Origin: a virus
Virus genome (UHGV): UHGV-0317858
Reading direction: 5' to 3' (one strand)
Length of the DNA: 12,330 bases
Below the pieces are notes generated by a model. The model had not been told where the DNA came from and searched no databases. It saw only the letters and a program-made list of their open reading frames with translations. The translations under genes were made by a program, and so were the position numbers. Shown here one piece after another: positions 1 to 11,968 of this stretch; position 1 is the stretch's first letter, and every line of letters starts with the position of its first letter.

Positions 1-458
1 GAGTAACCGCGATTATCTCCGCTCTGGTTATCTGCATCGTCGTCTGCCTGTCATGGGGTGTTAATCATTACCGTGATAACGCCATCGCCTACAAAGAACA
101 GCGCGACAAAAATGCCAGAGAACTGAAGCTGGCGAACGCGGCAATTACTGACATGCAGATGCGTCAGCGTGATGTTGCTGCGCTCGATGCAAAATACACG
201 AAGGAGTTAGCTGATGCGAAAGCTGAAAATGATGCTCTGCGTGATGATGTTGCCGCTGGTCGTCGTCGGTTGCGCATCAAAGCAGTCTGTCAGTCAGCGC
301 GTGAAGCCACCGCCACCTCCAGCGTGGATAATGCAGTCTCCCCCAGACTGGCAGACACCGCTGAACGGGATTATTTCACCCTCCGGGAACGACTGGTAAT
401 GATGCAGGCCCAACTTGAAGGTGCTCAGCAATACATAACCGAACAGTGTTTAAAGTAA
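1..458 (+). CDS. rzpR: Rz-type inner-membrane spanin (i-spanin), 5-prime partial; the reading frame is open from position 3 and the start codon lies upstream of the window
   Basis: Frame open from position 3 translates to [77 protein letters not shown]..., near-identical to lambda Rz as I recall it, including the N-terminal transmembrane segment and coiled-coil region. Stop TAA at 456-458. The ORF track lists only the part from the internal ATG at 153. Confidence 0.85.
214..399 (+). CDS. rzoR: Rz1-type outer-membrane lipoprotein spanin (o-spanin), nested entirely inside Rz in the +1 frame
   Basis: 61 aa product [24 protein letters not shown]... with a lipobox (VVVGC) followed by a PPPPP proline-rich stretch, closely matching lambda Rz1. 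The embedded out-of-frame architecture is the classic Rz/Rz1 arrangement. Confidence 0.8.
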
Positions 459-479
459 AATCTTAACTACAATATGATT

Positions 480-577
480 CATTTTGATGATTGTTTCATA
501 AGGAACAGTGAAGTAAGATCTAAGAGGAGTTAAATTTTATACAGTATAATCATAATATTGCAGCAAGGTGGTTATAA
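480..577 (+). promoter_or_regulatory. AT-rich intergenic region upstream of trkG with candidate -10 hexamers (TATAAT at 545-550 and 573-578) and an AGGTGG Shine-Dalgarno-like element at 566-571
   Basis: Perfect TATAAT hexamers are visible, but no convincing TTGACA-like -35 sits at 17 bp spacing, so the promoter assignment is tentative. Confidence 0.25.
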
Positions 578-595
578 TTGAAAGAATATTTAGAT

Positions 596-2053
596 ATGAA
601 TACATCTCATGTAAGAGTTGTTACTCATATGTGTGGGTTCCTGGTTTGGCTCTATAGTCTTTCAATGTTGCCACCAATGGTTGTAGCATTGTTTTATAAA
701 GAAAAAAGCCTGTTCGTTTTCTTTATAACTTTCGTTATATTTTTTTGCATTGGTGGCGGAGCGTGGTATACAACTAAGAAATCTGGCATTCAATTACGTA
801 CCCGTGATGGGTTTATTATAATTGTAATGTTTTGGATTTTGTTTTCTGTTATTAGTGCATTCCCTTTATGGTTTGACTCAGAACTTAATTTAACGTTCAT
901 TGATGCTCTGTTTGAAGGGGTTTCTGGAATAACAACAACAGGAGCAACTGTAATTGATGATGTTAGTTCATTACCTCGGGCATATTTGTACTATCGGTCA
1001 CAGTTAAATTTTATAGGTGGTTTAGGAGTTATTGTTCTGGCGGTTGCAGTATTGCCATTATTGGGTATTGGTGGTGCAAAGCTTTATCAGTCAGAAATGC
1101 CGGGGCCATTTAAGGATGACAAACTCACTCCCCGCCTGGCCGATACGTCACGGACACTGTGGATAACTTATTCTTTATTAGGTATTGCTTGTATTGTCTG
1201 TTATAGACTTGCAGGAATGCCTTTGTTTGATGCTATTTGTCACGGGATTTCCACAGTTTCGCTTGGTGGTTTCTCAACTCATAGCGAGAGTATCGGATAT
1301 TTTAATAACTATTTGGTTGAGCTGGTGGCTGGTTCTTTTTCCCTGCTATCGGCTTTCAACTTCACTCTTTGGTATATTGTTATTAGCAGAAAAACGATAA
1401 AACCTTTAATCAGAGATATTGAACTTCGTTTCTTTCTGTTAATAGCCTTAGGGGTGATCATTGTTACCTCTTTCCAGGTCTGGCATATAGGTATGTATGA
1501 CTTGCATGGAAGTTTTATTCATTCGTTTTTTCTTGCCAGCTCCATGCTCACTGATAATGGTTTAGCTACGCAGGATTATGCAAACTGGCCCACGCACACG
1601 ATAGTGTTTTTGCTGTTGTCAAGTTTCTTTGGGGGATGTATAGGTTCAACCTGTGGTGGAATTAAGTCACTTCGATTTCTTATACTTTTCAAACAAAGCA
1701 AACACGAGATAAATCAGCTTTCTCATCCCAGAGCGTTGTTGAGTGTAAATGTAGGAGGGAAGATAGTTACAGATCGTGTAATGAGGTCTGTATGGAGTTT
1801 CTTTTTTCTTTATACTCTCTTCACGGTGTTTTTTATACTGGTGTTAAATGGTATGGGATATGATTTTCTTACATCATTTGCAACAGTGGCTGCATGTATT
1901 AATAATATGGGATTAGGTTTTGGGGCTACTGCATCGTCATTCGGAGTGCTTAATGACATTGCAAAATATTTAATGTGCATAGCTATGATTCTTGGTCGCC
2001 TTGAAATTTATCCTGTTATTATATTGTTTTCAGGTTTTTTTTGGCGCTCCTAA
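596..2053 (+). CDS. trkG: TrkH/TrkG-family potassium uptake membrane protein (prophage-borne TrkG)
   Basis: The product from ATG 596 (MNTSHVRVVTHMCGFLVWLYSLSMLPP...FSGFFWRS, 485 aa) matches E. coli TrkG as I recall it. It is highly hydrophobic with multiple predicted transmembrane segments and glycine-containing pore-loop-like motifs (GVSGITTTG, GLGVIVLAVAVLPLLGIGG). An alternative TTG start at 578 is better positioned relative to AGGTGG (566-571) and would add 6 residues (MKEYLD). Confidence 0.9.
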   Translation: MNTSHVRVVTHMCGFLVWLYSLSMLPPMVVALFYKEKSLFVFFITFVIFFCIGGGAWYTTKKSGIQLRTRDGFIIIVMFWILFSVISAFPLWFDSELNLTFIDALFEGVSGITTTGATVIDDVSSLPRAYLYYRSQLNFIGGLGVIVLAVAVLPLLGIGGAKLYQSEMPGPFKDDKLTPRLADTSRTLWITYSLLGIACIVCYRLAGMPLFDAICHGISTVSLGGFSTHSESIGYFNNYLVELVAGSFSLLSAFNFTLWYIVISRKTIKPLIRDIELRFFLLIALGVIIVTSFQVWHIGMYDLHGSFIHSFFLASSMLTDNGLATQDYANWPTHTIVFLLLSSFFGGCIGSTCGGIKSLRFLILFKQSKHEINQLSHPRALLSVNVGGKIVTDRVMRSVWSFFFLYTLFTVFFILVLNGMGYDFLTSFATVAACINNMGLGFGATASSFGVLNDIAKYLMCIAMILGRLEIYPVIILFSGFFWRS

Positions 2054-2139
2054 TATATGGCTGATTTATAATTGTGAGTTTAATATTATGTTGACTCACT
2101 CATTGATCCAATACCTAACTTTACCAGCAACACCTCCGC

Positions 2140-2174
2140 CCCCAGTAGCACTGGCTGCTGGGGTGCGTTTTATT
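2140..2174 (+). terminator. Rho-independent terminator downstream of trkG
   Basis: 10-bp stem CCCCAGTAGC (2140-2149) pairing with GCTGCTGGGG (2154-2163) with one G-U wobble, loop ACTG, followed by TGCGTTTTATT. Confidence 0.5.
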
Positions 2175-2190
2175 CATAAAGCAAGGCTGT

Positions 2191-2985
2191 ATGAGCGAGA
2201 AATTAAAGATAGTCTATCGCCCATTACAAGAATTGTCACCGTATGCGCACAACGCCAGGACGCACAGTACTGAGCAGGTGGCACAACTGGTAGAAAGTAT
2301 TAAGCTATTCGGCTGGACTAATCCGGTGCTGATTGACGAAAAGGGCGAAATTATTGCGGGTCACGGTCGTGTTATGGCGGCTGAAATGCTCAAAATGGAT
2401 TCTGTTCCGGTCATTGTTCTGTCTGGCCTGACGGATGAGCAGAAAAAGGCGTACCGCCTGGCAGATAATCGCCTGCCGATGAATGCTGGCTGGGATGAAG
2501 ATCTGTTGCGGATGGAGCTGTCGGACCTAATCAATGCTGATTTTGATGTCTCCCTGACAGGCTTCATCCCGACAGAAATTGATGAACTGTTGACGGATGT
2601 TTTGCCCGGTACAGGAAATGAGGAGGAGCCGTATACGACGAAAATTGATACGCCTGTTTATGAGCCGTCGGGCGGTAAACCGGATATCAGTGAACTGTAC
2701 GACGATACGAAAACTCAGGAGCTGATCAGCCGGATACGTTCGGCGTCCCTTGATCCTGATATTGAGAAATTCCTCCTGTGTGCGGCAGAACGTCACACAG
2801 TGTTTAATTTCAGCAGAATTGCGGACTATTACGCTCATGCCCCCGCTGAAATTCAGTGCCTTTTCGAGGAGTCGGCGCTGGTGATCATTGATTATCAGCA
2901 GGCTATTGAAAATGGATTTGTCCGAATGACGCAGCGCATGGTGGAGATCATGCATGGCGGGGAGGAGGAGGAGGAATATGCGTGA
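2191..2985 (+). CDS. ParB/Srx-like N-terminal domain protein (ParB-like nuclease or DNA-binding fold) with an acidic C-terminal region of unknown function ending in poly-Glu
   Basis: 264 aa. The N-terminal 90 residues (YRPLQELSPYAHNARTHSTEQVAQLVESIKLFGWTNPVLIDEKGEIIAGHGRVMAAEMLKMDSVPVIVL...AYRLADNRL) carry the hallmarks of the ParB N-terminal/sulfiredoxin fold (hydrophobic strand, then G-H-x-R, then AA). The C-terminal region has no motif I recognise. The gene ends ...[11 protein letters not shown] and its stop overlaps the next start. Confidence 0.75.
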   Translation: MSEKLKIVYRPLQELSPYAHNARTHSTEQVAQLVESIKLFGWTNPVLIDEKGEIIAGHGRVMAAEMLKMDSVPVIVLSGLTDEQKKAYRLADNRLPMNAGWDEDLLRMELSDLINADFDVSLTGFIPTEIDELLTDVLPGTGNEEEPYTTKIDTPVYEPSGGKPDISELYDDTKTQELISRIRSASLDPDIEKFLLCAAERHTVFNFSRIADYYAHAPAEIQCLFEESALVIIDYQQAIENGFVRMTQRMVEIMHGGEEEEEYA

Positions 2986-3712
2986 TGATTTTTGCGCCTT
3001 TATTCTGACTCACGGGCGACCGGACAAAGTTCTGACTTACCGGACGTTGCGTCGTGCTGGCTATACCGGGAAAATTTTTATCGTTGTTGATGATGAAGAT
3101 AAGACACGGCATCAGTACATGGCTGAATTTGGTGAACAGGTGCTGGTATTTTCCAAAGCCGATATTGCCAGTCGTTTTGACGAAGCCGATAATTTTGGTG
3201 ATCGCCGCTCAATTTTTTACGCCCGTAATGCCTGTTTCGACCTGGCAAAACTGGTCGGGTGTAAATACTTCATTCAGCTCGATGATGATTATCACGAGTT
3301 CCAGTTTCGGGTGGATCGCAACTATGACCAGGCCTATTTCCCGATAAGGAAACTGGATGCGATCCTTTCTGAAATGCTGGCGTATTACGAATCAATACCC
3401 GCGCTTTCCATCGCTATGTCGCAGGGCGGGGATTTTCTTGGTGACAATGGCGGCCATGCTTCGTGGGTGAAACGCAAGGCAATGAACAGCTTTATCTGTT
3501 CGGTTGATCGACCGTTCTCATTCATGGGGCGCATTAACGAGGATGTGAATACGTACACGAATCTCGGTCGCTGTGGTGAATTGTTTATGACGATCGGTGC
3601 TGTCCAGTTAGGGCAGAAACAGACGCAGAAAAACAGCGGCGGAATGACCGAGCTGTATCTGGATTCCGGAACCTGCCGCCGCGCCCGTTCAATATCCGGA
3701 TGCGCAGGATGA
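2978..3712 (+). CDS. GT-A-fold (family 2-like) glycosyltransferase-like protein, probably C-terminally disrupted at the junction with J-derived DNA
   Basis: From ATG 2978 ([43 protein letters not shown]...[13 protein letters not shown]...) the spacing and composition fit the GT-A signature: N-terminal beta-strand, then hydrophobic-VVDD-x-D at residues 36-41, then a DxD motif (DDD at residues 102-104) about 60 residues later, as in SpsA-type enzymes. The GGAGGAGGAGGAGGAA run just upstream of ATG 2978 serves as the Shine-Dalgarno; the ORF-track start at 2954 lacks one. The last 13 or so codons appear to be J-gene DNA read out of frame. Confidence 0.55.
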
Positions 3713-6639
3713 CGCCGGACAGCACCACAGACCAGCTGCAGAACAAAACGCTCTGGTCGTCATACACCGAAATCATCGATGTGAAACAGTGCTACCCGAA
3801 CACGGCACTGGTCGGCGTACAGGTGGATTCGGAGCAGTTCGGCAGCCAGCAGGTGAGCCGTAATTATCATCTGCGCGGGCGTATTCTGCAGGTGCCGTCG
3901 AACTATAACCCGCAGACTCGGCAATACAGCGGTATCTGGGACGGAACGTTTAAGCCAGCATACAGCAATAACATGGCCTGGTGTCTGTGGGATATGCTGA
4001 CCCATCCACGCTACGGCATGGGGAAACGTCTTGGTGCGGCGGATGTGGACAAATGGGCGCTGTATGTCATCGGCCAGTACTGCGACCAGTCAGTGCCGGA
4101 CGGCTTTGGCGGCACGGAGCCGCGCATCACCTGTAATGCGTACCTGACCACACAGCGCAAGGCGTGGGATGTGCTCAGTGATTTCTGCTCGGCGATGCGC
4201 TGTATGCCGGTATGGAACGGGCAGACGCTGACGTTCGTGCAGGACCGACCGTCGGATAAGGTGTGGACCTATAACCGCAGTAATGTGGTGATGCCGGATG
4301 ATGGCGCGCCGTTCCGCTACAGCTTCAGCGCCCTGAAAGACCGCCATAATGCCGTTGAGGTGAACTGGATTGACCCGAACAACGGCTGGGAGACGGCGAC
4401 AGAGCTTGTTGAAGATACGCAGGCCATTGCCCGTTACGGTCGTAATGTTACGAAGATGGATGCCTTTGGCTGTACCAGCCGGGGGCAGGCACACCGCGCC
4501 GGGCTGTGGCTGATTAAAACGGAGCTGCTGGAGACGCAGACCGTGGATTTCAGCGTCGGCGCAGAAGGGCTTCGCCATGTACCGGGCGATGTTATTGAAA
4601 TCTGCGATGATGACTATGCCGGTATCAGCACCGGTGGTCGTGTGCTGGCGGTGAACAGCCAGACCCGGACGCTGACGCTCGACCGTGAAATCACGCTGCC
4701 ATCCTCCGGTACCACGCTGATAAGCCTGGTTGACGGAAGTGGCAATCCGGTCAGCGTGGAGGTTCAGTCCGTCACCGACGGCGTGAAGGTAAAAGTGAGC
4801 CGTGTTCCTGAGGGTGTTGCTGAATACAGCGTATGGGGGCTGAAGCTGCCGACGCTGCGCCAGCGCCTGTTCCGCTGCGTGAGTATCCGTGAGAACGACG
4901 ACGGCACGTATGCCATCACCGCCGTGCAGCATGTGCCGGAAAAAGAGGCCATCGTGGATAACGGGGCGCACTTTGACGGCGAACAGAGTGGCACGGTGAA
5001 TGGTGTCACGCCGCCAGCGGTGCAGCACCTGACCGCAGAAGTCACTGCAGACAGCGGGGAATATCAGGTGCTGGCGCGATGGGACACACCGAAGGTGGTG
5101 AAGGGCGTGAGCTTTATGCTTCGCCTGACCGTGGCAGCGGACGACGGCAGTGAGCGGCTGGTCAGCACGGCCCGGACGACAGAAACCACATACCGCTTCA
5201 GGCAGCTGGCGCTGGGGAACTACAGGCTGACAGTCCGGGCGGTAAATGCGTGGGGGCAGCAGGGCGATCCGGCATCGGTATCGTTCCGGATTGCCGCACC
5301 TGCAGTGCCGTCGCGGATTGAGCTGACGCCGGGCTATTTTCAGATAACCGCCACGCCGCATCTTGCCGTTTATGACCCGACGGTACAGTTTGAGTTCTGG
5401 TTCTCGGAAAAGCGGATTACCGATATCAGGCAGGTTGAAACCACAGCCCGCTATCTTGGCACGGCGCTGTACTGGATAGCCGCCAGTATCAATATCAAAC
5501 CGGGCCATGATTATTATTTTTACGTTCGCAGTGTGAACACCGTTGGCAAATCGGCATTCGTGGAGGCTGTTGGTCAGCCGAGTGATGATGCATCCGGCTA
5601 TCTGGATTTTTTCAAAGGCGAGATAGGGAAAACCCATCTGGCTCAGGAGCTGTGGACGCAGATTGATAACGGTCAGCTTGCGCCTGACCTGGCTGAAATC
5701 AGGACGTCCATTACGGATGTCAGCAATGAAATCACGCAGACCGTCAATAAGAAACTGGAAGACCAGAGTGCGGCAATTCAGCAGATACAGAAGGTTCAGG
5801 TTGATACAAATAATAACCTGAACAGCATGTGGGCTGTGAAGCTGCAGCAGATGCAGGACGGACGCCTTTATATCGCGGGTATTGGTGCCGGTATTGAGAA
5901 CACCCCTGACGGCATGCAGAGTCAGGTGCTGCTGGCGGCGGACAGGATTGCGATGGTTAATCCTGCGAATGGCAACACAAAACCGATGTTTGTTGGTCAG
6001 GGCGATCAGATATTCATGAACGACGTGTTCCTGAAACGCCTGACGGCCCCCACCATTACCAGCGGTGGAAATCCACCGGCATTTTCCCTGACACCGGACG
6101 GAAAGCTGACTGCTAAAAATGCGGATATCAGTGGCAGTGTGAATGCGAACTCCGGGACGCTCAACAACGTCACGATTAATGAGAACTGTCAGATTAAGGG
6201 GAAACTGTCAGCCAATCAGATTGAAGGCGATATTGTCAAAACAGTGGGTAAGGCTTTCCCGCGGGACTCCCGGGCACCGGAGCGGTGGCCATCAGGGACC
6301 ATTACCGTCAGGATTTATGACGATCAGCCTTTTGACAGGCAAATTGTTATTCCAGCGGTGGCATTCTGCGGCGCTAAACATGAGCGGGAGAATAACGATA
6401 TTTATTCGTCATGCCGCCTGATAGTGAAGAAAAATGGTGCTGAAATTTATAACCGTACCGCGCTGGATAATACGCTGATTTACAGTGGTGTTATTGATAT
6501 GCCAGCTGGTCACGGCCACATGACGCTGGAGTTTTCGGTGTCAGCATGGCTGGTAAATGACTGGTATCCCACAGCAAGTATCAGCGATTTGCTGGTTGTG
6601 GTGATGAAGAAAGCCACCGCAGGCATCAGTATCAGCTGA
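3700..6639 (+). CDS. J: Tail tip attachment / host specificity protein J, N-terminally truncated remnant (C-terminal roughly 980 residues)
   Basis: The translation ([76 protein letters not shown]...) matches lambda gpJ from an internal position as I recall it, including the C-terminal receptor-binding region, which here diverges from lambda. The frame is open only back to a stop at 3577-3579 and no N-terminal J sequence is present. ATG 3700 is an internal Met, so expression as an independent protein is uncertain and the locus may be annotated as a pseudogene. Confidence 0.85.
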
Positions 6640-6654
6640 ATTTTATAACCCATA

Positions 6655-6684
6655 TACGGGCGCCAGAAATGGCGCCTTTTTTAT
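6655..6684 (+). terminator. Rho-independent terminator downstream of J
   Basis: GGCGCCA GAAA TGGCGCC hairpin (7-bp G/C-rich stem, tetraloop) followed immediately by TTTTTTATT. Confidence 0.6.
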
Positions 6685-6706
6685 TGCAGAAAAGCGAGAG
6701 GTAATT

Positions 6707-7306
6707 ATGCGTAAAGTTTGTGCAGCCATTTTGTCCGCAGCCATCTGTCTGGCCGTATCCGGTGCGCCTGCATGGGCGTCTGAGCAGCAGGCCACACTGA
6801 GCGCAGGGTATCTTCATGCCCGTACGAACGCTCCCGGCAGCGAAAATCTGAACGGGATTAACGTGAAATACCGTTATGAGTTTACGGACACGCTGGGGCT
6901 GATTACGTCATTCAGTTATGCCAACGCTGAAGATGAGCAAAAAACGCATTACAGCGATACCCGCTGGCATGAGGATTCCGTGCGTAATCGCTGGTTCAGC
7001 GTGATGGCGGGGCCGTCTGTGCGCGTGAATGAATGGTTCAGCGCGTATGCGATGGCGGGTATGGCTTACAGCCGTGTGTCGACTTTCTCCGGGGATTATA
7101 TCCGCGTAACTGACAACAAGGGGAAAACGCACGATGTGCTGACCGGAAGTGATGACGGTCGCCACAGCAACACGTCTCTGGCGTGGGGAGCTGGCGTGCA
7201 GTTTAACCCGACCGAATCCGTGGCCGTTGACGTCGCTTATGAAGGCTCCGGCAGCGGTGACTGGCGTACCAACAGTTTCATCGTTGGTGTCGGTTATAAA
7301 TTCTGA
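6707..7306 (+). CDS. lomR: Lom outer-membrane beta-barrel protein (Ail/Lom/PagC family)
   Basis: 199 aa with a signal peptide (MRKVCAAILSAAICLAVSGAPAWA then SEQQ), near-identical over most of its length to lambda Lom as I recall it, and ending in the aromatic C-terminus VGVGYKF typical of outer-membrane beta-barrels. Preceded by an RBS (GAGAGG). The gene is intact. Confidence 0.9.
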   Translation: MRKVCAAILSAAICLAVSGAPAWASEQQATLSAGYLHARTNAPGSENLNGINVKYRYEFTDTLGLITSFSYANAEDEQKTHYSDTRWHEDSVRNRWFSVMAGPSVRVNEWFSAYAMAGMAYSRVSTFSGDYIRVTDNKGKTHDVLTGSDDGRHSNTSLAWGAGVQFNPTESVAVDVAYEGSGSGDWRTNSFIVGVGYKF

Positions 7307-7370: not shown

Positions 7371-10300
7371 ATGGCAGTACGGATTTCAGGTGTACTGAAA
7401 GATGGCGCAGGTAAGCCGATACAAAACTGCACCATTCAGCTAAAGGCCAGGCGCAACAGCACCACGGTGGTGGTGAACACAGTGGCCTCAGAAAACCCGG
7501 ATGAAGCCGGGCGTTACACAATGGACGTCGAGTATGGTCAGTACAGCGTCAGTCTGTTGGTGGAGGGATTCCCGCCGTCACACGCCGGGATTATCACCGT
7601 ATATGAGGACTCAAAGCCGGGCACACTGAATGATTTCCTCGGTGCAATGACGGAGGATGATGTCCGGCCAGAGGCACTGCGCCGTTTTGAACTGATGGTG
7701 GAAGAGGTGGCGCGTAACGCGTCCGCAGTGGCACAGAACACGGCAGCCGCGAAGAAGTCAGCCGGCGATGCCGGCACATCTGCCCGTGAGGCGGCAACCC
7801 ATGCGACTGATGCTGCAGGCTCAGCACGCGCAGCCAGCACGTCAGCCGGACAGGCCGCTTCGTCGGCTCAGTCAGCGTCTTCCAGCGCAGGAACGGCATC
7901 AGCAAAGGCCACTGAAGCATCAAAAAGTGCTGCCGCTGCAGAGTCCTCAAAAAGCGCGGCGGCCACCAGTGCCGCTGCGGCAAAAACGTCAGAAACGAAT
8001 GCGGCAGCGTCACAACAATCAGCAGCCACTTCAGCATCCACCGCGACCACGAAAGCGTCAGAAGCTGCCACCTCAGCCCGGGATGCGTCGGCTTCAAAAG
8101 AGGCGGCAAAATCATCAGAAACGAGCGCAGCCTCGAGCGCCAGCAGCGCAGCTTCCTCGGCAACGGCGACAGCAAATTCTGCGAAGGCGGCAAAAACGTC
8201 CGAGACGAACGCCAAGGCTTCTGAAACGGCAGCGGGACAGAGTGCCTCAGCTGCGGCAGGCTCAAAAACAGCGGCTGCGTCGTCTGCCAGTGCCGCGTCA
8301 ACAAGTGCCGGGCAGGCCTCAGCCAGTGCCACCGCCGCCGGAAAATCGGCAGAAAGTGCTGCATCGTCCGCTTCAACAGCCACAACGAAGGCTGGCGAAG
8401 CCGCTGTACAGGCCAGCGCAGCAGCGAGGTCTGCTTCCGCAGCGAAGACATCCGAAACGAATGCGAAAGCGTCGGAAACCCGTGCAGAATCCTCAAAAAC
8501 GGCAGCCGCATCGTCCGCCAGTTCGGCAGCGTCATCGGCATCATCTGCGTCTGCTTCAAAAGATGAGGCGACCAGACAGGCGTCAGCAGCGAAGGGCAGC
8601 GCCACGACGGCATCCACGAAAGCAACAGAGGCGGCAGGCAGTGCGACGGCAGCATCTCAGAGCAAAACTGCTGCTGAATCCGCTGCGACCCGTGCGGAAG
8701 CTGCTGCTGATCGTGCTGAAGAGATTGCCGGTGCAGTTGCGATGGAAGACGCAAGCCTTACAACTAAAGGTGTTGTGAAACTTAGCAGTGCTGTTGATAG
8801 CACCAGTGAATCGCTGGCCGCAACGCCAAAAGCAGTTAAAGCAGCCAATGACAATGCGAATAGCAGGGTGCCATCTAACCGAAAAGTTAACGGAAAAGCA
8901 CTGACTGCGGATATAACATTAACGCCGAAAGATATTGGTACTTTAAATTCAGTAACGATGTCTTTCTCTGGCGGGGCTGGGTGGTTCAAACTGGCTACGG
9001 TTACCATGCCACAAGCGAGTTCCATCGTTTACATCGCATTGATTGGTGGCGCTGGTTACAACGTCGGTTCCCCACATCAGGCAGGCATTTCAGAACTGGT
9101 TCTACGAGCAGGCAATGGAAACCCCAAAGGAATTACCGGGGCTTTGTGGAAGCGTACAGCCGTCGGATTAACGAATTTCGCCTGGATCAACACATCCGGC
9201 GATACATATGATATTTACGTTGAGATTGGCAATTATGCGACTCGTGTAAATATCCATTGGGATTGTACTGCAAATGCGACAGTTTCTATTTATACATCGC
9301 CAACATATTCAGCGAGTAAGCCTTCCAGCGTTACCGATGGTGTTGTTTATACGATGTATAGCACACATCAGAAACCGACGCCGTTAGATATTGGAGCACT
9401 GCCAACAACCGGAGGAACAGTTTCAGGTCCGTTGTCTGTTACAGGTGGATTAACTGGTTCATTGAATGGTAATGCAAGTACAGCCACGAAATTGCAGACG
9501 GCAAGATCTATCGGTGGAGTTGTTTTCGACGGTTCTGCAAATATTAACCTTCCAGGTGTAAACACTACGGGTAATCAGAACACCACTGGTAATGCTGCAA
9601 CTGCTACAAAACTTCAGACTGCAAGAAAAATATCCGGTGTTCCATTTGATGGTTCTACTGATATCACTTTAACCGCCGCGCATGTGGCTGCTTTTGCCAG
9701 AAGAGCAACGGATGCGTATGCCGATGCGGATGGGGGCGTTCCATGGAATGCCGAATCAGGCGCTTACAATGTCACCCGCTCTGGCGACAGCTATATTCTG
9801 GTTAACTTCTATACCGGAGTCGGAAGTTGCCGGACCTTGCAGATGAAGGCGCATTACAGAAATGGTGGTCTGTTCTACCGTTCTTCAAGAGACGGTTATG
9901 GTTTTGAAAGTGGTTGGGCGCAGCTTTACACCTCGGCTCATCCTCCTGCAGAGTTTTATCCAGTCGGTGCACCAATCCCGTGGCCATCAGATACCGTTCC
10001 GTCTGGTTATGCCCTGATGCAGGGGCAGACTTTTGACAAATCTGCCTACCCGAAACTTGCTGCCGCTTATCCGTCAGGCGTGATCCCTGATATGCGTGGC
10101 TGGACGATTAAGGGCAAACCTGCCAGTGGTCGTGCCGTATTGTCTCAGGAACAGGACGGCATTAAATCGCACACCCACAGCGCCAGCGCATCCAGTACGG
10201 ATTTGGGGACGAAAACCACATCGTCGTTTGATTACGGCACTAAATCCACGAATAACACCGGGGCGCATACGCACAGTCTGAGTGGCTCTACGGGGTCTGC

Positions 10301-10661: not shown

Positions 10662-11245
10662 TGACATTCAGAATGAGTGAACAACCACGGACCATAAAAA
10701 TTTATAATCTGCTGGCCGGAACTAATGAATTTATTGGTGAAGGTGACGCATATATTCCGCCTCATACAGGTCTGCCTGCAAACAGTACCGATATTGCACC
10801 GCCAGATATTCCGGCAGGCTTCGTGGCTGTTTTCAACAGTGATGAGGCATCGTGGCATCTCGTTGAAGACCATCGTGGTAAAACGGTCTATGACGTGGCT
10901 TCCGGCGACGCGTTATTTATTTCTGAACTCGGCTCATTACCGGAAAATGTCACCTGGTTATCCCCGGAAGGGGAGTTTCAGAAGTGGAACGGTACAGTCT
11001 GGGTGAAGGATACGGAAGCAGAAAAACTGTTCCGGATCCGGGAGGCGGAAGAAACAAAAAACAGCCTGATGCAGGTAGCCAGTGAGCATATAGCGCCGCT
11101 TCAGGATGCTGTAGATCTGGAGATCGCAACGGAAGAAGAGGCGTCGTTGCTGGAAGCCTGGAAGAAGTATCGGGTATTGCTGAACCGTGTTGATACATCA
11201 ACTGCACCTGATATTGAGTGGCCTGCAAATCCTGTCAGGGAGTAA
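10661..11245 (+). CDS. tfaR: Tail fibre assembly protein (Tfa chaperone)
   Basis: 194 aa ([54 protein letters not shown]...[19 protein letters not shown]), near-identical to lambda Tfa as I recall it. The start overlaps the stf stop. Confidence 0.9.
11081..11200 (+). repeat. Direct repeat copy 1 (the 3-prime end of tfa), about 87% identical to 12130-12249
   Basis: Hand alignment of the two 120-nt segments gives about 15 mismatches with no gaps. Both encode [19 protein letters not shown][20 protein letters not shown]. Confidence 0.7.
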
Positions 11246-11299: not shown

Positions 11300-11968
11300 C
11301 TATTTTTTCCCTGAAGCGGAAAACATTACTACAGTACCTTTAATCTTGGTTTTAACATTCTCGAAATGCTCTGAGAGTATATGTGTTAAGCCTTCTTCGG
11401 AATCTTTTGTGTTTGAAAAGATGCCTTTTTGATTGTAAATGCGCATCAGTTTTTGACCGAAGCTATTGTGCACAACGCCGTCACCAAGAATTGTGGCTCC
11501 GTATAGAGTTCCATCGTCAGTTAAGGCCTGCGCCGCATTGCGTATTACACAGCTTTTTGTAGATATATTTCCAGGCAGGCAGTGAAGAAGGTAAAACATG
11601 GAAATGGAATCAAATTGACCATGTAACGCCGCGGGATAAGGTTCAAAAACATCATGGCTAATTTTATGTTTAATTTTTGATTCCCCAGCCCTTGTAGATG
11701 CCGCGTTCAGGCTAGTTTCGTTCAAATCCATTAAAGATATCAGACTACTCTCAGGTACGTGAGTAAGGTAAAACCCAGTTCCAACACCAATATCCAGATG
11801 GTTGTTACCTAAATGTTCCAGAAAGTGTGGAAGGAGGTGTTCCTTTGTAGGACATCCCCATGCAAGCCGATTTGATACTCCCAAAACCCACCAGTCATAA
11901 AGCTTTAGGGTAAGTGGTGTGTAAATTTTAGCCCCATCATCTGTGTTTTTTTTCATTAATTTCACCAT
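11300..11968 (-). CDS. Class I (Rossmann-fold) SAM-dependent methyltransferase of unknown substrate; AT-rich cargo gene
   Basis: 222 aa with a canonical motif I (HLDIGVGTGFY), an acidic residue closing beta-2 (LISLMDLNE), a motif II-like segment (FDSISMFYLLHCL) and a motif III-like segment (LTDDGTLYGATI). No DPPY/NPPY or other DNA-methyltransferase target-recognition motifs. Visibly AT-rich relative to the neighbouring tail genes, with a weak RBS. Confidence 0.6.
   Translation of the reverse strand: MVKLMKKNTDDGAKIYTPLTLKLYDWWVLGVSNRLAWGCPTKEHLLPHFLEHLGNNHLDIGVGTGFYLTHVPESSLISLMDLNETSLNAASTRAGESKIKHKISHDVFEPYPAALHGQFDSISMFYLLHCLPGNISTKSCVIRNAAQALTDDGTLYGATILGDGVVHNSFGQKLMRIYNQKGIFSNTKDSEEGLTHILSEHFENVKTKIKGTVVMFSASGKK

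Follow-up and report, generated by a model that had tools for sequence, protein, structure and literature searches.

The AT-rich block near the left end of this window (the whole 12,330-nucleotide stretch of viral DNA analysed here) is very probably trkG of a Rac-type lambdoid prophage, carried as a horizontally acquired cassette of ~1.65 kb with its own promoter and followed by a leaky hairpin that belongs to the phage backbone. That trkG is AT-rich, foreign cargo of Rac is correct and already known: its foreign origin, its own sigma-70 promoter and its repression by H-NS are in the literature (Yamamoto 2018; Tanudjaja 2022). To this picture we add the borders of the cassette, the ownership of the hairpin, the placement of the TrkG clade and the conservation of the start site, which are demonstrated here together with the identity and composition of the gene; the start codon used and the position of the promoter we infer. 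Two common assumptions are corrected in the process, as TrkG did not arise by duplication of trkH and the terminator downstream of it is part of a phage cargo slot. Earlier publications on K-12 trkG as a foreign Rac gene reportedly include Schlösser 1991.

Identity and genomic context of trkG

The open reading frame at 578/596..2053 (+ strand) encodes a full-length TrkH-family protein, with matches to PF02386 (Pfam TrkH; 483 bits, 1e-144, profile positions 3-500 of 502) and to TIGR00933 (414.7, above the cutoff of 331.15). Its score on the TrkH equivalog model NF008020, 454.8 bits, falls below the cutoff of 866, compared with 1075.6 for K-12 TrkH; the window protein is a TrkH paralogue, not TrkH proper. 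TrkH from E. coli (b3849) and from V. parahaemolyticus (3pjz and 4j9u, the closest solved structures, E 1e-121) belongs to the same Pfam and TIGR families, aligns over the full length and shares with TrkG the four pore-loop motifs SGITTTGAT, TVSLGGFST, TDNGLAT and INNMGLGFG. Within these, the residues SGITTTG, SLGGFST, TDNGL and NNMGLG are invariant across an alignment of 25 sequences, the window protein among them, and we take the four loops to be the selectivity filter with its conserved glycines, following the V. parahaemolyticus TrkH structure. TrkG differs from TrkH in being only ~41% identical to it, in its GC3 (0.325 vs 0.626), and in being an accessory (29% of E. coli), prophage-borne gene.

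The TrkG of the window is identical to K-12 TrkG (b1363) at 482 of 485 residues, the substitutions being I93F, S330N and C458Y, and the 200 nt upstream and the downstream hairpin each differ from K-12 by 1 nt. Both loci have Rz/Rz1 on the left and ynaK on the right, and RefSeq labels this DNA as Rac-prophage trkG, adjoining ttcA/intR, in a Rac annotation order of intR/ralR...essD-rrrD-Rz, trkG, ynaK...pinR, adjoining ttcA. Near-identity to K-12 TrkG combined with Rz and ynaK as neighbours in a Rac-type prophage marks the gene as the Rac-prophage TrkG, and the original prediction that a second Trk transporter gene of the Rac type is present here is borne out by the Pfam TrkH match, the 3/485 differences from K-12 and the RefSeq label. 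The two loci diverge further downstream, where the window carries a full-length ynaK, a GREB1-like gene fused at ~3672 to a long J remnant, and an intact lom, whereas K-12 carries ynaK/ydaY fragments, ynaA and an IS5-disrupted lomR.

Between E. coli and E. albertii, trkG has a dN/dS of 0.048, so the gene is under selection. In K-12, K+ uptake by TrkG depends on TrkA (and SapD/ATP) and, unlike that by TrkH, on Na+, which TrkG also conducts (PMC9898762). The product encoded in the window would likewise serve as membrane subunit in a cation channel of the TrkH family, partnering host TrkA (and SapD).

To the left of the gene, outside the cargo, lies the 3' part of Rz (i-spanin; 1..458, + strand; Pfam Phage_lysis, 8e-45), with Rz1 embedded in it at 214-399. 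To the right, likewise outside the cargo, are ynaK (2191..2985, + strand), with a ParB/Srx N-terminal domain (Pfam ParB_N), a truncated TAGT/GREB1-like gene (2954-~3672) and, from about 3700, a J remnant consisting of the C-terminal 979 residues of J. An Rfam scan of the trkG flanks found no known RNA. The original prediction had the trkG block end at 2140 and lie between the lysis genes and the tail remnant. The Rz side of this description stands, but the coding sequence stops at 2053, and on the tail side the ynaK/GREB1-like pair intervenes. In more complete relatives this pair precedes the terminase genes: the order in NCTC9064 is Rz-trkG-(IS5)-ynaK-GREB1-like-terS-terL-portal, and that in SK6988, a prophage without trkG, is lysis genes-two small ORFs-ynaK-GREB1-like-terS-terL. 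The tail remnant lies near trkG through a deletion joint at about 3672; a later deletion with this joint would have removed the packaging and head genes and most tail genes, leaving ynaK, the truncated GREB1-like gene and the J C-terminus.

Base composition and origin of the gene

The GC and GC3 of the trkG CDS (596-2053, + strand) are 0.380 and 0.325, compared with 0.520 and 0.513 in Rz, 0.497 and 0.547 in ynaK, 0.497 and 0.538 in the TAGT-like gene, 0.559 and 0.659 in J, 0.553 and 0.610 in lom, 0.537 and 0.458 in stf, and 0.489 and 0.467 in tfa. Pooling the flanking genes gives GC3 counts of 1720/3142 against 158/486 for trkG (0.547 vs 0.325; chi-square 82, p 1e-19), and trkG also differs from each single flanking phage gene (p<=7e-4). 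Among all 1458-nt stretches of the 12.3 kb, GC is lowest in the one that starts at 451 (0.368, for a median of 0.511), and the spacer upstream of the gene (459-595) has a GC of 0.255. Rare codons make up 9.1% of trkG and 2.7% of trkH. Sliding-window GC and codon usage both separate trkG from its flanks, which upholds the earlier description of an AT-rich gene behind an AT-rich upstream region; the latter travels with the gene and is 82% identical in E. albertii.

Two rival explanations concern this composition and the origin of trkG. One is that low GC is a by-product of the amino acids of a polytopic membrane protein, and TrkG is indeed rich in Phe, Ile and Leu, with a strongly negative AT skew along the gene. 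Yet GC3 is mostly independent of amino-acid content, and chromosomal K-12 trkH, which encodes a membrane homologue in the same host, has a GC3 of 0.626 (p 1e-20 against 0.325). Synonymous choice is reversed between trkG and trkH (CTG 11 vs 37, ATA 17 vs 2, GGC 2 vs 17), and Enterobacter homologues of the same clade have GC3 values of 0.70-0.79. Since trkH belongs to the same family and the same host, its GC3 refutes the amino-acid bias of membrane proteins as the cause, leaving this explanation with practically no probability. The other is that trkG is a duplicate of chromosomal trkH taken up by a phage from E. coli, in the manner of argF/argI, an analogy drawn in the literature (PMC5811629) and in keeping with the fact that TrkG and TrkH are both TrkH-family proteins and both TrkA users. 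Such a duplicate is however at odds with the identity of only about 41% to enterobacterial (Salmonella) TrkH by tblastn, with the equivalog score (455 for a cutoff of 866) and, decisively, with the phylogeny: the tree places TrkG in a separate clade, far from TrkH, so that this origin too is refuted and can be set aside with near certainty.

The phylogenetic comparison of TrkG with chromosomal TrkH proposed in the original prediction thus yields separate clades in a neighbour-joining tree, with TrkG-clade members that are 60-79% identical across Enterobacterales. The clade has a GC like that of its hosts in most of the Enterobacterales sampled, and it equals that of the flanks in Enterobacter, Citrobacter, Serratia, Proteus and others; low-GC outliers in variable contexts are found in Escherichia, Citrobacter NCU1/Awk4 and Pectobacterium. 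Those of Escherichia group as a low-GC subclade and occupy three distinct places in the chromosome. The chromosomal TrkG-clade genes in Enterobacter, Citrobacter, Pantoea and Rahnella encode proteins of 491 aa that are 69-77% identical to TrkG and, read from a TTG/GTG start, equal to it in length; a Shine-Dalgarno sequence stands at the same place. Their GC is that of the host and codon 7 is not ATG, whereas in Escherichia the gene is AT-rich and mobile and has acquired the ATG.

Borders and distribution of the cassette

Genome comparison puts the mobile unit at about 459-2122. On the left, the Rz homology of lambdoid phages and of trkG-less E. coli prophages stops at 436-456, and homology to E. 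albertii spans 416 to about 2057-2075. On the right, the BLAST homology of the trkG-less SK6988 prophage to the window begins at 2123, and NCTC9064 carries an IS5-like element at about 2114; these comparisons place the right border within 2054..2122, the 3' flank of the cassette (+ strand), which contains a small inverted repeat (GTGAGT...ACTCAC, about 2074-2099). Upstream of the gene, the AT-rich region with promoter and 5' leader (459..577, + strand; GC about 0.25) is the part with 82% identity between E. coli and E. albertii, for synonymous sites of the CDS that differ at 53%. The regulatory region and the gene would together have been gained horizontally, as a cassette of ~1.65 kb in a slot between Rz/Rz1 and the ynaK/GREB1-like/terminase module.

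Among 5426 complete E. coli genomes, 1551 (29%) carry the trkG block, and 1520 of these keep the Rz-trkG junction. A search with a synthetic Rz+ynaK junction found Rz and ynaK no more than about 800 bp apart in 0/5426 E. coli genomes, and a search of the phage collection for the same flanks without trkG returned only Rac-derived records or distant ParB matches. Because none of the 5426 genomes offers an exact empty site, the insertion event is deduced from partial, one-sided comparisons. The E. albertii copy of trkG occupies a different chromosomal site, and those of E. fergusonii and Pectobacterium lie outside prophages.

Phage morons in the sense of Juhala and Hendrix include, for example, bor and lom of lambda. 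Like a moron, trkG has a non-phage function, a composition that deviates from the surrounding phage genes (GC3 0.325 vs 0.547) and a probable promoter region of its own that would be active in the repressed prophage, and is placed after the lysis genes and before a terminator. It is unlike a moron in that the 5426 E. coli genomes contain no exact empty site flanked by these two genes, in that the terminator appears to go with the slot and not with the insert, and in that trkG is also found outside prophages (E. fergusonii, Pectobacterium).

A leaky hairpin in the phage backbone

Downstream of the cassette lies an intrinsic-terminator-like hairpin with a U-rich tail (2137..2175, + strand), whose stem at 2140-2163 has 10 pairs (7 G-C) and a loop of 4 and is followed by TGCGTTTTAT. 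It folds with an energy of -25.2 kcal/mol (z -5.2), which 0/200 shuffles match. The original prediction took this element (2140-2174) for trkG's own terminator. The hairpin itself is real, and it is the first strong one with a U-tract 3' of the trkG stop codon; in K-12, transcript coverage drops 4-fold across it, from 137 to 34 reads at 1425351 (= window 2165), and bicyclomycin relieves this in part (PMC7815308 supp. 2). Against its having arrived with the cassette, SK6988, which lacks trkG, has a hairpin with a U-tract in the corresponding position, close before its ynaK homologue, with the sequence of the 3' arm and the U-tract shared, and a search 3' of the trkG copies in E. albertii and E. 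fergusonii found no terminator-like site. Since the hairpin is present without trkG and absent at these two copies, it is part of the phage cargo slot, and we regard co-transfer with the gene as improbable. The hairpin is leaky in K-12, where published data show read-through past it into ynaK-ydaY. Transcripts of trkG would accordingly stop only in part at this backbone element ahead of ynaK.

Promoter and expression

A constitutive RpoD promoter has been reported at trkG from genomic SELEX (PMC5811629), and a trkG promoter is active in a luciferase (lux) reporter (PMC9898762). In SMRT-Cappable-seq data for K-12, an operon begins at b1363 (trkG) (PMC6131387), and trkG is not listed in the Cappable-seq supplements of PMC4782308. 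Consensus searches were less informative: a sigma-70 scan returned the same number of sites as in shuffled sequence, and its sole two-hexamer spacer match (449-478) is not conserved in E. albertii. Conservation points to two other candidates. The octamer AGTATAAT (543..550, + strand), a candidate -10 element that the two-hexamer scan had missed, is identical in E. coli, E. albertii and E. fergusonii despite the divergence around it; no convincing -35 was found for it. The second, TATAATTG (573..580, + strand), is conserved in all three Escherichia copies and lacking in other relatives with a TTG/GTG start. It consists of an in-frame TAA followed by the TTG start, and its positions 573-578 also read as a second perfect TATAAT, with no -35 upstream.

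Repression of trkG by H-NS and StpA has been reported by qRT-PCR, in a study that also cites ChIP-chip data (PMC9898762), and is attributed in the literature to the AT-richness of the gene. In a repressed prophage, trkG would be driven by its own sigma-70 promoter, with H-NS/StpA damping its expression.

Conservation of the start site

The coding sequence can be read from ATG 596 (596..2053, + strand; 485 aa), as in the RefSeq and K-12 annotations, or from TTG 578 (578..2053, + strand; 491 aa), the start position of the nearest relatives. The latter lies directly 3' of the in-frame TAA and is served by the Shine-Dalgarno sequence AAGGTGG (565-571, + strand) 6 nt upstream. Duplex energies with the 16S 3' end are -10.2 kcal/mol for TTG 578 and -0.9 for the 20 nt before ATG 596, which agrees with the ambiguity noted originally, of a TTG with a well-spaced ribosome-binding site and an ATG with a weaker one. 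Counted from an invariant His, codon -16 reads TTG or GTG at 37 loci, and all 37 have a Shine-Dalgarno-like element (-5 to -12 kcal/mol) at the same place. In several of the nearest relatives, including Citrobacter NCU1/Awk4 and Pectobacterium, this TTG/GTG is the only in-frame start. Conservation across these loci indicates that TTG 578 is the ancestral start position and that ATG 596 is derived in Escherichia.

The alternative is that ATG 596 has become the sole start, with the TTG and the G-rich element as ancestral relics or kept as a -10; in one variant, TATAAT 573-578 would be the -10 box of a promoter giving a short-leader mRNA, whose transcript would begin downstream of TTG 578. Several observations fit this reading. 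All Escherichia copies have an ATG at the codon of 596, and ATG AAT ACA TCT CAT (596-610) is the sole run of >=4 nucleotide-identical codons among the three Escherichia copies (1/488 five-codon windows), so that the gene's strongest nucleotide conservation begins at ATG 596. The 15 nt between TTG and ATG have a pN/pS of about 2 within Escherichia (about neutral) and an E. coli/E. fergusonii identity of 8/15, that is, no protein-level constraint on these codons in Escherichia. Conservation of the TATAATTG 8-mer is confined to the subclade that also has the ATG, more distant 486-aa relatives have an ATG start one codon away, and a plasmid-expressed 485-aa construct is functional (PMC9898762). 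The reading has to contend, however, with the missing Shine-Dalgarno sequence at ATG 596 (-0.9 vs -10.2 kcal/mol) and with E. fergusonii, where a Shine-Dalgarno-like GGAGG persists 5-6 nt ahead of the TTG amid sequence that has otherwise turned over. The 15-nt stretch has 0 indels and 0 stops in the 37 loci starting at the TTG/GTG codon, and the variant with a promoter at 573-578 further lacks a -35. We hold the ATG-only reading, with or without that promoter, to be possible but the less probable one. Judging from the DNA, translation would most likely begin at TTG 578, alone or together with ATG 596.

There is about an even chance that the reference 485-aa annotation misses a real or co-used start at the ancestral TTG, which lies six codons further upstream and gives 491 aa, and that Escherichia is in the middle of a start-site shift, away from a weak codon backed by a strong Shine-Dalgarno sequence and towards an ATG that has none. 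The practical value of these observations lies in annotation, where pipelines are discordant between 485 aa and 491 aa, and the conservation of TTG/GTG as the clade's start matters for expression constructs and for names passed on by homology. A full-text literature search for trkG together with start codon returned nothing relevant. Public databases carry the 491-aa form (P0122, 165 contigs) as well as the 485-aa form, and the 485-aa model has been carried over to Citrobacter sp. Awk 4, where it begins at an implausible CTG.

Identity and genomic setting of trkG

The window is a remnant of a Rac-type lambdoid prophage of E. coli. At its left end, the 3' part of Rz with the embedded Rz1 (to 458) is followed by a 137-nt AT-rich spacer (459-595), the trkG ORF (578/596..2053), which encodes a full-length TrkH-family protein, a second spacer of 137 nt, and ynaK (2191-2985), which encodes a ParB/Srx N-terminal (ParB_N) domain. 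Beyond these, a TET-associated-glycosyltransferase/GREB1-like gene lies at 2954-3712 and a remnant encoding the tail-tip protein J (C-terminal 979 residues) at 3700-6639; next come lom, the side tail fibre gene and its assembly gene, and a methyltransferase gene on the minus strand. The original prediction placed trkG between the lysis genes and a tail remnant, which is correct on the left, where Rz adjoins it, but not on the right, where the flank is ynaK rather than J; likewise, the CDS stops at 2053 and not at 2140.

The trkG product yielded a full-length match to Pfam PF02386 (1e-144) and a TIGR00933 score above cutoff, and is identical to K-12 TrkG at all but 3 of 485 residues; among solved structures, the nearest are those of Vibrio parahaemolyticus TrkH (3pjz, 4j9u). 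In RefSeq, the same DNA is annotated as trkG within Rac, flanked by intR...essD-rrrD-Rz and ynaK...pinR and adjoining ttcA.

At ~3672, a deletion has joined the GREB1-like gene and the J remnant, with many genomes matching 1-3674 and other genomes matching from 3670 onward. The more complete relative NCTC9064 shows the original setting of the trkG slot, in the order Rz-trkG-ynaK-GREB1-like-terS-terL-portal. In SK6988, whose prophage lacks trkG, two small ORFs and then a hairpin plus U-tract separate the lysis genes from ynaK; downstream of ynaK come the GREB1-like gene, one further small ORF, and the genes for the small and large terminase subunits. The ynaK and TET-associated-glycosyltransferase/GREB1-like genes (2191-3712 in the window, where the latter is cut at ~3672 by the joint to J; 5072-6785 and 5078-6794 in loci L087 and L088) form a conserved pair that, in more complete relatives, immediately precedes the terminase genes; this arrangement suggests a DNA-modification or packaging-linked module.

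A foreign composition within Rac

As predicted, trkG is AT-rich relative to its flanks, with a GC of 0.380 and a GC3 of 0.325 compared to 0.49-0.56 and 0.46-0.66, respectively, for the surrounding phage genes (GC3 vs. pooled flanking genes, chi-square 82, p 1e-19). Its upstream region is also AT-rich, the spacer having a GC of 0.255, and the lowest-GC gene-sized window in the 12.3 kb begins at 451. Amino-acid bias was ruled out as the cause, because chromosomal trkH, a homologous membrane protein gene in the same host, has a GC3 of 0.626 (p 1e-20).

The prediction reads this known gene correctly, and its core is not new, since the low GC, Rac location, acquisition, H-NS repression, and own promoter of trkG have all been published. 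The gene (38% GC vs. 53% for trkH) has been taken as horizontally acquired (PMC9898762, citing Schlösser 1991), is repressed by H-NS/StpA, has a promoter active in a lux reporter, and mediates K+ uptake that is Na+-dependent, unlike that of TrkH (PMC9898762). Genomic SELEX identified a constitutive RpoD promoter at trkG, among very few inside K-12 prophages, and its authors concluded that trkG entered Rac together with this promoter (PMC5811629).

Elsewhere in the window, a class I SAM-dependent methyltransferase gene (11300-11968, minus strand) lies downstream of the tail-fibre assembly gene and matches trkG in AT-richness (GC 0.405, GC3 0.363; indistinguishable from trkG, p 0.36), so that it probably represents another compositionally foreign cargo gene. 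The tail-fibre assembly gene tfa itself contains a full-length Rfam match to IS009 (RF02111; 221.7 bits, 11004-11202, plus strand).

Boundaries of the trkG cassette

Sequence comparisons place a putative mobile unit at about 459-2122. On the left, Rz homologues of lambdoid phages and trkG-less E. coli prophages align only to 436-456. The window and an E. albertii copy (92% amino-acid and 84% nucleotide identity), which occupies another chromosomal location, share homology over 416-2057 only. On the right, NCTC9064 carries an IS5-like element at ~2114, and the trkG-less prophage of SK6988 is homologous to the window from ~2123 onward. The E. albertii copy lies in a small island (locus L005, around 8435-9061) between a yebY-type DUF2511 gene and rsmF, alongside an NleF-like gene of the caspase-inhibitor family and a fragment of a calcineurin-like phosphoesterase. 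The upstream spacer accompanies trkG at this site too; its identity between the two species is 82%, against a 53% difference at CDS synonymous sites, which argues for a selected regulatory region.

The trkG block is accessory: 1551 of 5426 complete E. coli genomes carry it, almost always linked to the same Rz (1520 genomes); the exact empty site, with this Rz adjoining ynaK, was found in none of the 5426. With a dN/dS of 0.048 against the E. albertii copy, trkG is under strong purifying selection. Fifteen trkG-block matches in complete E. coli genomes sit on plasmids, and the 145-kb plasmid pABWA45_1 (NZ_CP022155.1, 5321-7991; locus L089) carries a Rac fragment consisting of an rrrD remnant, Rz, a frameshifted trkG, and a ynaK remnant, beside IS26 and Tn3 sequences.

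The terminator attributed to trkG is a genuine hairpin (2140-2163; -25.2 kcal/mol, z -5.2), but its assignment to the trkG unit was not upheld. It very probably belongs instead to the slot, ending whatever cargo precedes ynaK, because trkG-less SK6988 has a hairpin (-27.3 kcal/mol, z -4.8) that has 3' arm and U-tract sequence in common with it and lies at an equal distance from ynaK, and no such terminator was found downstream of trkG in E. albertii or E. fergusonii. Data published for K-12 are consistent with leaky termination here: across position 1425351 (window 2165, two bases past the hairpin stem), DirectRNA-seq coverage drops from 137 to 34 reads, but only from 301 to 176 with bicyclomycin, and the study lists a Rho termination region at this site (score 2.36, p 3.8e-5; PMC7815308 supplementary file 2). 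By SMRT-Cappable-seq, the trkG operon reaches b1363-b1366, i.e., trkG-ynaK-ydaY.

Origin and relatives of trkG

Beyond the E. coli cluster, the closest proteins are from E. fergusonii (79% identity), Citrobacter sp. (77%), and Pectobacterium (75%), followed by a broader set (60-73%) from Enterobacter, Citrobacter, Pantoea, Rahnella, Buttiauxella, Serratia, Xenorhabdus, and Proteus. A neighbour-joining tree with K-12 TrkH as its root groups all these relatives in one clade far from TrkH, and trkG is therefore not a captured trkH copy. Gene GC matches the flanks in most genera (Enterobacter, 0.58 vs. 0.58; Citrobacter, 0.52 vs. 0.54; Proteus, 0.35 vs. 0.35), the low-GC outliers being the Escherichia copies (0.38-0.42) and that of Pectobacterium (0.416 vs. 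0.505 for its flanks); the Citrobacter NCU1/Awk4 copies (0.45-0.46) lie within low-GC flanks. Outlier and island copies occupy variable contexts, namely Rac, the E. albertii island, a porin-mtfA interval (E. fergusonii), an Rhs gene-containing island next to icd (Citrobacter), and a site beside ychF (Pectobacterium). The trkG-clade genes of "Chryseobacterium sp. 18061" (L026) and "Pseudomonas lundensis I31" (L052) group with Scandinavium and Serratia, respectively, which suggests mislabelled or contaminated assemblies.

Two candidate start codons

The start-codon ambiguity noted originally is real: TTG 578 lies directly after an in-frame TAA, with AAGGTGG 6 nt upstream (-10.2 kcal/mol vs. the 16S 3' end), whereas ATG 596 is essentially without a Shine-Dalgarno (SD) sequence (-0.9 kcal/mol). 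We take TTG 578 to be the ancestral start and consider it probably still used, perhaps alongside ATG 596. When 81 loci were anchored on an invariant His, the codon equivalent to TTG 578 was TTG or GTG, never ATG, in 37 loci that included all nearest relatives, each preceded by an SD-like element (-5 to -12 kcal/mol). In several nearest relatives it is the sole in-frame start, because the codon equivalent to ATG 596 is CTG, ATT, TTA, etc. The six-codon extension shows coding-type evolution in the Enterobacter/Citrobacter group, with a pN/pS of 0.48 and N-D/E-S-L kept via synonymous changes (TTA/CTG/CTT). More distant 486-aa proteins begin at an ATG one codon ahead of the ATG 596 position. All three Escherichia copies retain the TTG together with its preceding TAA and an SD (GGAGG in E. 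fergusonii, in otherwise diverged surroundings), and all three have gained ATG 596.

Translation from ATG 596 only, which we consider possible if somewhat improbable, would fit the near-neutral evolution within Escherichia of the 15 nt separating TTG and ATG. The 8-mer TATAATTG (573-580), which overlaps the TTG and is conserved as such, could be a -10 box, and ATG AAT ACA TCT CAT (596-610) is the most conserved stretch of the gene and the sole run of at least 4 codons identical in the three Escherichia copies. These 15 bases are identical at every position in E. coli, E. albertii, and E. fergusonii, although third positions over the whole gene show a three-way identity of only 34%; some constraint at the nucleotide level acts on this stretch, whether on initiation or on something else.

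Both forms have been deposited in public databases for this exact sequence, the 485-aa form on at least 1000 contigs and the 491-aa form on 165. The 485-aa NCBI protein of Citrobacter sp. Awk 4 (P0003) starts at the CTG equivalent to ATG 596 (3961-3963 in its locus, L007), six codons downstream of a TTG with an SD, apparently because the 485-aa trkG model of E. coli was carried over.
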